The notes under the pieces were generated by a model, which ran no database searches, was not told the origin of the DNA, and saw nothing but the letters and a program-made list of their open reading frames with translations. Positions 7,901 through 52,848 of a stretch of 64,000 bases of DNA are shown in pieces. How positions within the stretch are numbered: position 1 is the first letter of the stretch; each line of letters starts with the position of its first letter. The position numbers were made by a program, and so were the translations under genes. Source of the stretch: Eledone cirrhosa (taxonomy: Eukaryota); assembly GCA_964016885.1 (NCBI GenBank), contig OZ024741.1, forward strand, positions 80,848,001-80,912,000, in the 5' to 3' direction.

Positions 7901-8326
7901 CCAGTCGCCCACTAACACTAAAGAGCGGGACGTTCCAAGAAAGGTCTCCAGACGCCGGAAGAAATCAGGCCGCCCTGCTCCTGTCGGGGCATAGACGGCC
8001 ACTAGCCTGAAAGCTTGCCCGTCTCCGCTGGTCACGTCCAGCACCACCAGCTTACCCTCTGGGTCCAGGAAGATGGCCCGTATGGCGAGATCCAAACCTC
8101 TCCGAAAAAGCACAGCAACTCCTCCCCCCAATCCAGGACGGCTGGGAGATGCGTACACATCGTAGCCGCCAAAGATCGGTGCGAAGGCCGGTGCTTCGGA
8201 GATTCTGGTCTCGCTGATGGCCACTACATCTATGTTTAGTGACCTGAGGTCGTTGAGCAGGTGACCCTGCTTCCATGACGACCCCAAGCCACGCGCATTT
8301 ATGCTGCCTATTCTGAGTGAGGTCAT
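4907..8326 (-). CDS. ORF2 APE endonuclease-RT of copy B with one in-frame stop at 7418-7420
   Basis: APE motifs NARGL, SET, GD, YLDR, TDH; RT motifs FRPITLLN, QGCPLS, AYADD; CPRC..ETVLH..QC. ORFs 7418-8326 and 4907-7336 share a frame; copy F has AAA at the stop position. Confidence 0.92.
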
Positions 8327-8361
8327 GTTTAAAATAGAGGGGAAAAGATGGGAAAGACCAC

Positions 8362-48635: not shown

Positions 48636-51600
48636 CACAAAAACAAAAAACCAGCAAACACTACCACAAACATACAACCACCAACACAAACAACAAAAAC
48701 ATCACAAACAAAACCCCCACCTCCTGAAAACAAAATACCTACAACAAAACGAAAGCACACACAAGCACTACAGACAAAAACAAACACAACACAAGAAAAT
48801 TACACTTACACTTACATAAACACTGAAAACAAAACACTAATGGAGACCATCACGAACGATCCTTCGGTGAAAACCGAAGGGAAAACTTTCGCCCACTCTA
48901 TTAAAAATAACAAAAAACTGAACCTAAAACTAATTAGGGTCCCTATACAAACTTATAGGTCCCTAAAAGAAACATTTGAAAAGGATGTGGGGAATTCCTG
49001 CGTGAAACCACTTAACCGCGTCCTTCTCAAATGTCTCCCCACCCCAGACACCCCCATCCCACCAGACCCCACCCCACCAAACATCTCCGTTCCCACCCCG
49101 CCGGAAACCACCACCCACCCAGACAACCCCTCCAACACCCCCATGGAAATCGTGCAGCCTGGTTCCCAGGAGACGAAGGGTGAGTGATCTCTTTTCCTCT
49201 TTTAACTTTTCAGCACCAACATGGCCAATATAAGAGTTAGATGTGTGATCGTACGCGGCCTGGGAATGCCCTGGAAACAGGGCAAACTCTTAAACGACCT
49301 TAGGTCGCACAGTATGGATGTGGTAGCCATTTGCGAGTCCAGGATCCACAGCGAGCGACAGCTGGCCCCCATCTTCGTTGACTTTGAGATCTACGCATCT
49401 CTCTGTCAACCGGGGGTGGGGGCGGAGTTGCCGTTTTGCTGCGGAAACACATGGGCCTCGTAACACAGACGGTACATCTGGACCCGGAGGGTCGACTGGT
49501 GGTCCTAGACGTTGACGGTAGTGAAGGTGGAGCCTTCAGGCTGGTGGCCGCATATGCCCCATCCGGGACACCGCGGCCAGACTTCTTCAAACGTCTAGAG
49601 ACTTTTCTGGGAACGTCCCGCTCCTTGCTTTTAGTGGGGGACTGGAATGGAATCCTAGATGCACGTTGGGACTATGTGGGGGCATGTCCCGATAAAGGGG
49701 GGTGTAACAACCTCAAACAGTTAATCGACCGATTTGACCTGGCCGATAGATATCGACTAGATTTTCCGACTGTGCCACTGTGGACGTGGACTAATCGTAG
49801 CGGAACATCTAGATCGTACCTAGATAGGGTTCTAGTTAGAAATAAAGATAGGGACATGTTAAGCTGTCCACAAATGTTCATGGTTGCCTATTCAGATCAC
49901 AAACTAGTGACCTGCATGGCCAACCTTGATAGAACCCATAGACAAGGACCCGGCTACTGGAAGCTGAACTTGTCGTTACCGACAAGCAAAGCCTACAGTA
50001 GACTTTAGTTAAACAGCACTTGACAGGGGCCATTGTCAACAACAGATGGTGGTACTATCTCAAAAGGGCAGTTAGATTAGACTCGTTAGTTTTTAGAAAA
50101 GAATTAGCGTTAGATAGAAATAGAACCGAGAAGGAACTGGTAGATAAAGTAGAAGAGGCAATTAGAAGTGGCAACGTAGCCAGCGTGCTAGCAACGAGAA
50201 CGGCCTTGGACCAGTTCTTCGACGCAAAGCACGAAGGCTGCGTTGTCAGAAGCAAAATACGTGCTCTGGGAAACGAGGGAGCCAAAGCTGTTAGCTGGGC
50301 CCGAGTGACGGAGGAAAAAAGTGGCAACAAGTTCACGATTCGGTCTTTGAAGGACCAAAACGGACGCGTGATACGTGAGCCGAAGCAGATGTGTGCGGCC
50401 TTTCAGCGGCACTTTGCTCAACTGTTCGGGCCGGGCGGCGCGCCGGGAGGGGCTATGGATTTCGGTCCATACCTCGACGGCCTACCGCGACTCTCGGACA
50501 GCGAGGCAAAGTTCTGCGAAAAGCCGATTTCAGCCGCTGAAATCTCCAGGTCTCGACGGTCTACCCTACGAATTTTAGGTAGCAATGCCTGACTTATTCT
50601 CCGGTCTCCTGGAAGCGGTCTACTGCAACTGGCAACAGAACGGGAGAATTCCCAGTTCTGTAACCGGGGGCGTGGTCACACTAGTCAGGAAAGACGAGAA
50701 TAAGGGGGATGACATAGGCAACTTCCGGCCCATAACTCTGCTAAACAAAGAGTTACAGATTTTGGCCATGGTGTTGGCAAAGAGGCTGGCGCTTGTCGTC
50801 GAGAACCTGGTGGGAGAAGCGCAGACATGCGCAATCCCGACCAGGTCCATACACGACAACCTCCACCTCATGCGATACATCATAGAGAGGGTAGGGTGTA
50901 AACCCGGCTTCGGTGGGGCCCTGATCAACTTCGATCAGTCTAAGGCTTTCGATAGGGTTGACCATCGTTACCTGGATGCGGTGCTCGAGGCGGCAGGCTT
51001 CGGACCCGTGTTCAGGGGCTGGATTGCTGCAATGCACAACAGCAACATCTGCTCAAGGGTCATGGTGAACGGCTACCTCTCGGAGCCGTTCCATATCGCG
51101 CGATCCATTCAACAGGGATGCCCTCTCTCCTCCCTTCTGTACGTACTGACTCTCGAGCCACTACTGCGGAAGTTGGAGCTATTGCAGAGCATCCCTCTGG
51201 AACCGGGACTGCGAAAAGCGGCGTCGGCCTACGCCGACGACGTGACAGTAATGGTGTCGAACGCCTCGCAAATCGAGGAAGTCGGCACCTTACTGAAGGA
51301 ATACGAAAGTTTCACAGGAGCGAAGCTGAACCGGGACAAGTCCATCGGTTTGCAACTCGGATCGTGGAGAGGCAAACCGATGCCTTCCGATGGCGTCGTC
51401 GCACGCTGGACGGAAGGACCGGTAAAGCTGCTCGGGGTCTGGTTTGGTCCGGACCTCCAGGTGGAGAAGAACTGGAACGAAGTGACGGCCTAGGAGTTTG
51501 CACTCACCCAGAAGTGGGCCGAGTGCAAACTATCCTTGAAAGGTCGAGCGGAGGTGGCGAACACTTTTATAGCTTCCGCCATCTACTACCGCTTGACCGT

Positions 51601-52848
51601 CGTGCCTTGTCCAGCCAAAACGCTCTCCAAAATGGAGCGCGTGCTCTTCCAATTTCTTTGGAAGAAGCGGGCTCCTTTGGTGAGAAGATCCATCTGCTGC
51701 CAACACCCTTCTAACGGAGGGCTGGGGATGCCGTGGTTGACGATGCGCAAACACGCGCTCAGGCTGCGGCATCTCTACGTATTCCTCACCGGACAACCGG
51801 TGTGGGTCCCGTTCGTGAGGCGAGCCTTCCCACGACTCGTATCGCTGACCGAGCTGCAGTCCTGCGTCAAGCAAAGACCGAGGAAAATGGGCGACTGGCA
51901 CATCGAATGTGCTCAGGCGCTCACAGCCCTCTGGCAGGCGGACCCGGCGATCAGTGGAGACTCCACTTCGTCATTCTATAGAGGGTTGATCCGCAGCAAG
52001 TGCGACGACGCACTCGGTGAAACTCTAGGCGTAGAGGAAGATGAACTGGCCAGTCTGTTCGGTAGGACCTTCCGCCCGGGACCGATGGACAACTTCCAAA
52101 AGTCCTTGGCCTGGCAGTGCTACCGAGGAGCTCTACCAGTTCGAGACAAGCTCTACAGACATGGGCGCCCGGGCAGGGACCCTACAAAAAAGATCTGTCC
52201 GAGGTGTGTGCGTAACGAAGAAACCGTCGCGCACGCATTAATACACTGCCCGAGCGTCACTGACTTGTGGGGCTATGTAGAACGACTATTGTCATGGGTG
52301 GGACCAATCCGGTTGACCACCGAGTCCATTGTCATGATCAAACCGCCACCCTTTTCAAAAACGAAGGAGAGGCGGTTTTCCTTTGTGTGATAGCTATGGC
52401 GAAAGAGGTTGTATGGTGGACAAGGTTGAAACGGCTGAGGTCAGACACCTTTCTCTCCGGCCAACAACTGATTCTTTTTTTCAAATACCACTTTGGAAGA
52501 AGAATCAGGATGGAGAGTGAGGTGCTGTACCCCAGCAAGTTTTATGAAAGGTGGGTGAAAGTGGCGAGAATGGCCCGAGTGAATGGGCCTTCTCTCTATA
52601 TCAGCCTGTAGGTTGAGGAAAAGGAGGAGGAGAGGAAGGAGTACAAACTCTTCGTACTCCTGGAGATGAGGGTTTCACATTTTTTCGGGGGTATGTGTTA
52701 CCCATATGAACTGTCTCCCCCTATTGGGGAAAATCGACTAATTTTTTAAATTGCATTTGTGATAACATTTTACACGTTTTTATTGTATGTAAACTTTCCC
52801 CTTTGTATTTGTCCCCTTCTTTTGTGCCCCTGTGGCTAATAAAGAAAC
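48636..52848 (+). mobile_element. Tx1-like copy I, 5'-truncated in ORF1, (ATCT)n on both flanks
   Basis: ORF1 C-terminus to 49187; ORF2 fragments 49221-52611 with APE and RT motifs; 3' end gcccctgtggctaataaagaaac + atatct. Confidence 0.88.

Follow-up and report, generated by a model that had tools for sequence, protein, structure and literature searches.

Long interspersed nuclear elements (LINEs) are generally taken to produce both of their proteins from one unspliced bicistronic RNA, with the second open reading frame (ORF2) translated by reinitiation, and splicing of that RNA is viewed as damage to the element. We have analysed a 64,000 nt stretch of DNA from the octopod Eledone cirrhosa (assembly GCA_964016885.1, contig OZ024741.1, positions 80,848,001 to 80,912,000 of the forward strand; termed the window) in which LINE copies of the L1 group carry a consensus 5′ splice donor at the stop codon of ORF1, the first of their two open reading frames.

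The closest described parallel comes from the Ty1/copia retrotransposons, which make a spliced subgenomic GAG mRNA, as in the shGAG RNA of Arabidopsis EVD and through the approximately 3 kb intron of Drosophila copia (PMC5580714; this and the other reports cited are represented here by the available portions of their text). As in the octopod elements, the donor of these retrotransposons is located near the end of the structural gene. The spliced RNA yields the structural protein, the unspliced RNA provides the enzymes and the template, and U1 also blocks premature 3′ ends (PMC5580714). Ty1/copia elements differ in having long terminal repeats (LTRs) and a single polyprotein ORF, and EVD ties splicing to early termination (PMC5580714), whereas the octopod elements are bicistronic LINEs in which any splicing is unproven and the donor is placed at a stop codon already present. 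The donor of a copia-type strategy is present at the end of the structural gene both in the window copies and in the sister family described below. A candidate acceptor is conserved inside the sister family, but not across the window copies, and it does not exceed what shuffled sequences give.

Splice sites are also known in non-LTR elements. Human L1, which like the octopod elements belongs to the L1 group and has sense-strand splice sites, produces a spliced RNA for ORF2 termed SpORF2 (PMC2896524) and gives rise to spliced copies, the SpIREs, that are described as dead on arrival (PMC5860796). The human events described lie within the 5′ untranslated region (UTR), join the 5′ UTR and ORF1, or yield ORF2, and the available text of these reports describes no donor at the ORF1 stop (PMC5860796, PMC2896524). 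Drosophila TART is a non-LTR element with mapped splice sites as well, but its introns reside in antisense transcripts (PMC1636488), whereas the octopod sites belong to the sense strand and mark the ORF boundaries. In the standard view of L1 and SART1, which likewise have two ORFs and a short linker, ORF2 is translated by termination-reinitiation (PMC2881922), and the same route could make ORF2 from unspliced octopod RNA. This route differs in that it needs no splice signal, and it therefore leaves the motif unexplained.

Thirteen families of L1-Tx1 LINEs have been described in Octopus vulgaris (PMC13282606). These probably represent the same group as the window copies, because the nearest named relatives of the latter come from the octopod Argonauta hians (ORF2) and from Octopus sinensis, O. 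bimaculoides and O. vulgaris (ORF1). The main text of PMC13282606 does not contain 'splic', 'intron' or 'ORF1', and the available text of PMC13282606, PMC5203782, PMC10294476 and PMC7140322 does not describe splicing of Tx1 elements. The literature searched, which was mostly open-access and judged for the most part from listings, with supplements and Repbase entries outside its scope, did not describe a donor conserved where ORF1 of a LINE ends. The strategy is known from Ty1/copia, and in a LINE a conserved donor of this kind is apparently newly noted here, its absence from print not being established.

A conserved splice donor motif at the ORF1 stop

The window is animal DNA that is rich in microsatellites and densely populated by LINEs. 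Six copies, designated B, D, F, G, H and I, have both ORF1 and ORF2, the latter encoding an N-terminal apurinic/apyrimidinic (AP) endonuclease, a reverse transcriptase (RT) and, as the C-terminal zinc-binding region, a zf-RVT domain. Pfam Exo_endo_phos, RVT_1 and zf-RVT were matched in pieces of all six, and the best solved-structure match is LINE-1 ORF2p (E 2e-118, compared with 3e-39 for R2). The domain content and ORF layout with a separate upstream ORF1, the 3′ poly(A) signal with a simple-repeat tail, and the 5′ truncation seen in copy I identify these copies as non-LTR retrotransposons of the L1 group. In the Tx1 clade, ORF1 has a zinc knuckle, either alone or together with an RRM. A zf-CCHC domain was detected in D only, with a score below the Pfam cut-off; a CCHC motif is visible in the alignment, and PF00098 is annotated on relatives. 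'Tx1-like' serves as a label only, as the RT tree contained no reference Tx1 sequences. Target-site specificity is frequent in the Tx1 clade, and the window copies lie in microsatellites and next to other LINEs.

The motif G/GTRAGT, in which the slash marks the predicted splice point, is found at the ORF1 stop of five of the six L1-group copies, in each case at the position reported in an earlier note on this DNA. The sites are ACG/GTAAGT in B (8360..8365, GT at 8365, minus strand), AAG/GTAAGT in D (14677..14682, plus strand) and F (20819..20824, plus strand), GAG/GTAAGT in G (25774..25779, GT at 25779, minus strand) and AGG/GTGAGT in I (49180..49185, plus strand). Donors were scored by counting matches to the consensus MAG/GTRAGT. 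The remaining observations of the note at this junction also hold. Each donor is followed by a pyrimidine tract and then by the ORF2 ATG, 38-41 nt downstream, and the motif occurs in two codon phases. In B and F (phase 2) ORF1 ends Arg-stop with the stop codon, TAA, inside the motif, whereas in D, G and I (phase 1) the ends are of the type Gly-Lys-stop or Gly-Glu-stop, the former in D and the latter in I. Copy H has neither a donor nor a matching ORF1 stop at its junction (44828..44875, plus strand), which near 44844 is about 31 nt shorter than that of G and I. The gap accounts for the missing donor, and we infer that H is a decayed copy.

When B, D, F, G and I are aligned, six of the seven motif columns are invariant and the seventh is A or G. 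Elsewhere, invariant columns number 5 of 60 upstream, 7 of 36 across the linker and, in early ORF2, 49 of 100. Across ORF2 and the junction B and F share 94-95% identity and are therefore counted as a single lineage, even though identity between their ORF1s reaches only about 52%. The GGTRAGT 7-mer is not enriched in the window as a whole (18 observed, 16 expected), and of 9432 random stop triplets 17 (0.18%) have it close by. B, F, G and I each contain it exactly once on their sense strand, where ORF1 stops, compared with three occurrences in D and none in H. The donor motif is real and is placed at the ORF1 stop more often than chance would place it, and its position is the part that is not random.

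Related elements were obtained by a scan of genome contigs, which returned 43 loci from two assemblies labelled bacterial (G001 and G002). Related LINEs are present on these contigs, either in tandem arrays or as decayed copies, and are flanked by microsatellites of animal type; the contigs of G001 (L001-L042; for example L127, at G001:C9:20300-27600) are eukaryotic contigs within a bacterial-labelled assembly. The RT of this sister family is 50-51% identical to that of B, and the two groups fall in one clade, with support 99/94, in an RT tree of 55 rows from which G, having no RT, was left out. Of the rows in the tree, 25 form a clade that unites the window copies with the array families and with ENA proteins.

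At 40 of the 43 loci the donor directly follows the ORF1 stop, as G/GTAAGT. It is decayed to ATAAGT in L043 and absent from the family formed by L040 and L041. Every pattern-matched ORF1 end of G001 has it, in the form AAG/GTAAGT (63 of 63), and among four decayed G002 copies GTAAGT is kept in two (L125, and L126, where it lies 4 nt after a TAG stop) and diverged in two. Conservation in additional families, which the earlier note had suggested as a check, is thus observed. As outgroups we used more distant loci from a metagenome scan, which gave 80. The junction was examined in 45 of these, some of them near-duplicates, and the ORF1 stop could be read in 36. Only one of the 36 (L065) carries G/GTRAGT within 12 nt of that stop, and L059 has GTGAGT 13 nt past it. 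The L065 site (1920-1940), where ORF1 ends Gly-Glu-stop with G/GTGAGT as in copy I, is either a chance match or a parallel case. Two ORF1 relatives, P0186 (QGK-stop) and P0190 from Argonauta (EGKS-stop), have ends that are compatible with the motif at the protein level only, out of six octopod-type proteins with a complete C-terminal domain. An ORF1 word search gave no matches, and an endonuclease-pattern scan of metagenomes and both viral scans recovered no relatives.

Measured from the last base of the stop codon, the GT begins at -7 in D, G and I, at -3 in B and F, at +2 in the sister family and at +4 in L126. The donor is therefore retained in four registers, of which two are entirely non-coding, and its use in any of them would leave ORF1 intact or alter only its last codons.

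The sister family has comparable sites elsewhere. Each of its matched copies (61 of 61) carries GTRAGT after the ORF2 stop or overlapping with it, where only the R position varies while the six preceding bases are variable; the same motif is found at 0 of 26 outgroup ORF2 ends (29 were given, of which 3 had tails that were too short). About 240 nt beyond this donor, a pyrimidine tract with TAG is present in all seven aligned representatives. L040 and L041, whose 3′ UTR is their own and differently built, carry CAG/GTAAGT about 40 nt past the ORF2 stop and a strong acceptor-like site of 0.95 pyrimidine content about 140 nt later. A donor-like site is also present in 39 of 42 distinct sister-family 5′ UTRs. 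By the match-count score, the window copies have no strong donor at the ORF2 end or in the 5′ UTR. From these signals, the sister family looks built for splicing, with donors at the ORF2 end and an acceptor-like site downstream. When all functional models are considered jointly, it is very probable that the motif at the ORF1 stop is a selected U1 site.

ORF2 as a candidate alternative intron

The reading that we favour, although tentatively, is that splicing removes most or all of ORF2 to leave an ORF1-only mRNA. A U1-type donor at the ORF1 stop would be used to take ORF2 out as one intron, completed by an acceptor close to the element's 3′ end, and the unspliced RNA would act as the ORF2 message and as the template for copying. 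The purpose of such an arrangement may be a surplus of the structural protein, ORF1. An exon junction close to the stop codon avoids nonsense-mediated decay (the 50-nt rule). Since the donor hugs the stop, ORF1 would stay whole and, by this rule, the spliced RNA would escape decay. A wider scheme can be imagined in which a retrovirus-like programme operates throughout the clade, with the ORF1-stop and ORF2-stop donors competing for one 3′ UTR acceptor, sometimes with an additional 5′ UTR intron. This programme would give separate ORF1-only and full-coding mRNAs, and only unspliced RNA would be copied into the genome. We regard this extension as possible but rather unlikely.

Candidate acceptors in the window, all unproven, are present in several 3′ UTRs. 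B has a pyrimidine tract with a CAG ending at 4742 (4742..4765, minus strand), 73 nt ahead of AATAAA, and F has the same site (24086..24109, plus strand, CAG ending at 24109). In G and H the candidates are a TAG at 24424 (minus strand) and at 48380 (plus strand), respectively, at a distance to AATAAA similar to that of the B and F site. Joining the donors to these candidate acceptors would add 1-20 residues to ORF1. The earlier note had instead pointed to CTGTAG at the end of ORF2 (CTATAG in H) as an acceptor. The sequence is indeed present in D, G, I and H, but it consists of the last codon, Leu in the case of CTGTAG, and the stop, and it reads CTGTAA in B and CTTTAA in F. It was rejected as a common acceptor.

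A number of observations weigh against removal of ORF2 by splicing. The window 3′ UTRs have no single common acceptor, as B and F carry CAG, D has CAC at that place and G and H use TAG elsewhere; in the 3′ UTR of I no site passes the acceptor filter, which is a simple measure of pyrimidine fraction. Shuffled 3′ UTRs yield an acceptor-like site in 23-88% of trials, and for this reason no acceptor is established in the window copies. The absence of the ORF1-end donor from L040 and L041 indicates that it is dispensable in one branch, and the 63 G001 copies are near-identical and so represent few independent lineages. Fifteen of the 42 distinct sister 5′ UTRs have a donor without a YAG ahead of the ORF1 ATG, which fits U1 binding without local splicing.

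Intron-less copies, another check named in the earlier note, were sought in the sister arrays for both an ORF2 intron and a 3′ UTR intron, and none was present at any of the 63 ORF1 ends or 61 ORF2 ends. Spliced RNA that retains its 3′ end might be copied now and then, so the lack of spliced copies counts against the favoured reading. In contigs of four sequencing runs, no joint starts at the B donor among the 15 listed of about 2080, and contigs of two runs (X5 and X7) traverse this donor unspliced. No listed contig of run X1, which is taken as RNA by guess only, extends across the B junction. The internal deletions of F, G and H do not have GT..AG ends, and those of F and G show microhomology. 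The splicing- or U1-based control proposed in the earlier note consequently gains from conservation in a distant sister family, from the new register found there and from near-absence in the outgroups, but its splicing component has yielded no spliced read or intron-less copy in this material. Splicing at the ORF1-end donor is neither demonstrated nor ruled out by these sequence comparisons.

The alternative that survives best, which we consider possible but less likely than the favoured reading, is that no intron is removed at all. U1 small nuclear ribonucleoprotein (snRNP) bound at the 5′ UTR, the ORF1 end and the ORF2 end would aid transcription, suppress 3′-end processing or retain full-length RNA in the nucleus. 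This would agree with the sister 5′ UTR donors, including those that have no YAG to pair with, with the unspliced state of every genomic copy examined and with acceptors that do not exceed chance. The linker is also the sole non-coding space in the middle of the element, and a second role of U1 is known in EVD (PMC5580714). However, a U1 site at the start of ORF2 would have little to protect, because poly(A) signals are present within ORF2 of only 2 of 10 elements. Binding of U1 alone also leaves unexplained why the donor hugs the stop, when the poorly conserved ORF1 tail or the 40 nt linker would serve equally, and why the sister family retains an acceptor-like site downstream.

It is improbable that the motif is a by-product, inherited or produced by codons and stops such as Gly-Lys-stop or tandem stops, with no role in RNA processing. 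GTRAGT does contain a stop triplet, codons do create donor-like sites in these elements (at 14989 in D, and at a conserved Arg-Trp-Val near the ORF2 end), the 7-mer frequency in the window is that of chance, and the motif is missing from one related family (L040 and L041) and present in one outgroup (L065). Against this, the motif persists in its four registers, including the two that are non-coding, over approximately 50% RT divergence while its flanks are unconserved, and the ORF2-end donor varies at its degenerate position only. A double-stop explanation was rejected, as the extra stop falls in varying frames with respect to ORF2 (ATG offsets 38-41). UGGGA, a TURBS-like reinitiation motif present in the linker of the sister family, was likewise rejected, because it varies among copies while GTAAGT is constant.

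The earlier note had also considered removal of a short intron that would fuse ORF1 to ORF2, and its arithmetic is reproduced: introns of 53 nt in B and 52 nt in F are in frame, and the nearest AG is out of frame in D, G and I. Later in-frame AGs can be found in D (59 nt), G (55 and 58 nt) and I (57 nt, a GAG), so that introns of 52-59 nt could in principle be used to express ORF2. As a general mechanism the fusion fails, since it is impossible in the sister family, whose ORF1 stop comes ahead of the donor. In addition, the AG belongs to a conserved codon of ORF2 (Arg codon 5), the pyrimidine tract borders the donor and not the AG, and one in three AGs is in frame by chance. An RT domain was found in none of 74 ORF1 matches of 516-2000 aa (the longest being 861 aa), which is weak evidence in the same direction. 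We consider fusion very unlikely.

Least likely of all is an ORF2-only mRNA, for which the linker pyrimidine tract would supply the 3′ splice site to a donor further upstream, with the ORF1-end donor as an alternative partner. In its favour, a spliced mRNA for ORF2 is known from human L1 (PMC2896524), copy I carries a strong acceptor-like site that precedes its ORF2 ATG by 8 nt (49213, plus strand), and TAY-AGG is preserved in the sister families, together with a pyrimidine run, about 140 nt upstream of the ORF1 stop in all nine codon variants. Against it, the first AG past the tract falls beyond the ATG in B, D, G and H, the window copies are without a strong 5′ UTR donor, and the TAY-AGG site doubles as a conserved Tyr-Arg codon pair.

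Structure of the elements and their surroundings

Copy B (4620..10620, ends approximate, minus strand) is the most complete element of the window, with ORF1 from the ATG at 10461 to the stop at 8362, ORF2 from the ATG at 8326 to the stop at 4907 with one internal stop (7418-7420), AATAAA at 4668 and an (ATT)n tail. On the plus strand, ORF2 of D (14717-18157) is frameshifted, with the ORF1 stop at 14684 and AATAAA at 18454; that of F (20857-23949) has an internal deletion of approximately 300 nt near 21787; that of H runs from the ATG at 44875 to a stop ending at 48228; and that of the 5′-truncated copy I extends from 49221 to 52611, with the ORF1 stop at 49187. ORF2 of G (minus strand, ATG at 25740, stop ending at 24579) is mostly deleted. 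Two internal deletions (24733-24906) removed most of it while ORF1 and the 3′ end were kept, with junctions that are not splice-shaped, and G may be a non-autonomous derivative.

B and F have the last 45 nt or so of ORF1 and all of ORF2 in common and differ in the rest of ORF1 (from 8410 in B and 20775 in F), which indicates swapping of ORF1 and the 5′ UTR. Contig depth of run X2 on B falls across this swap point. Several ORF1 and 5′ UTR types are likewise joined to near-identical ORF2s in the sister family (L004, L008, L012 and L023). The G001 arrays are long head-to-tail runs of mostly intact LINEs in units of about 6.5 kb without a poly(A) tail. In the C9 array a spacer of about 17 nt follows each unit and the array end, resembling a target-site duplication from repeated insertion at the same site.

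All six window 3′ UTRs (for example 4620-5060) share a C-rich/G-rich inverted motif and a conserved block directly before AATAAA, which are candidates for possible RT-recognition elements. F and G are placed tail to tail through an (ATT)n/(TAG)n microsatellite (24150-24370), and their near-identical 3′ termini form an inverted repeat. Just upstream of H, a fragment of its ORF1 is present in inverted form with 88% identity (41975-42532 and 42956-43513). A SINE-like repeat of approximately 180 nt occurs three times (12600-12775, 20360-20544 and 40168-40356), once inside ORF1 of F. Interleaved with the L1-group copies is a second kind of LINE (1105-4531, 10626-12524 and 30124-33078) that includes a 984 aa open frame. 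We take it to be R4/Dong-like, having an RT with a C-terminal endonuclease-type region. No Rfam match in the window reached the gathering score; almost all of the matches below it were to microRNA families over simple repeats.

Implications for LINE expression

The donor has been retained across approximately 50% RT divergence, which suggests that in some LINEs the ratio of ORF1 to ORF2 and the choice of the RNA to be copied are set by means of the spliceosome or of U1 alone. The proposal predicts exact junctions that can be sought in cephalopod RNA, and sense-strand insertions of these elements would bring a strong donor into host introns. If true, LINEs of this kind would have converged with Ty1/copia elements on a common strategy.

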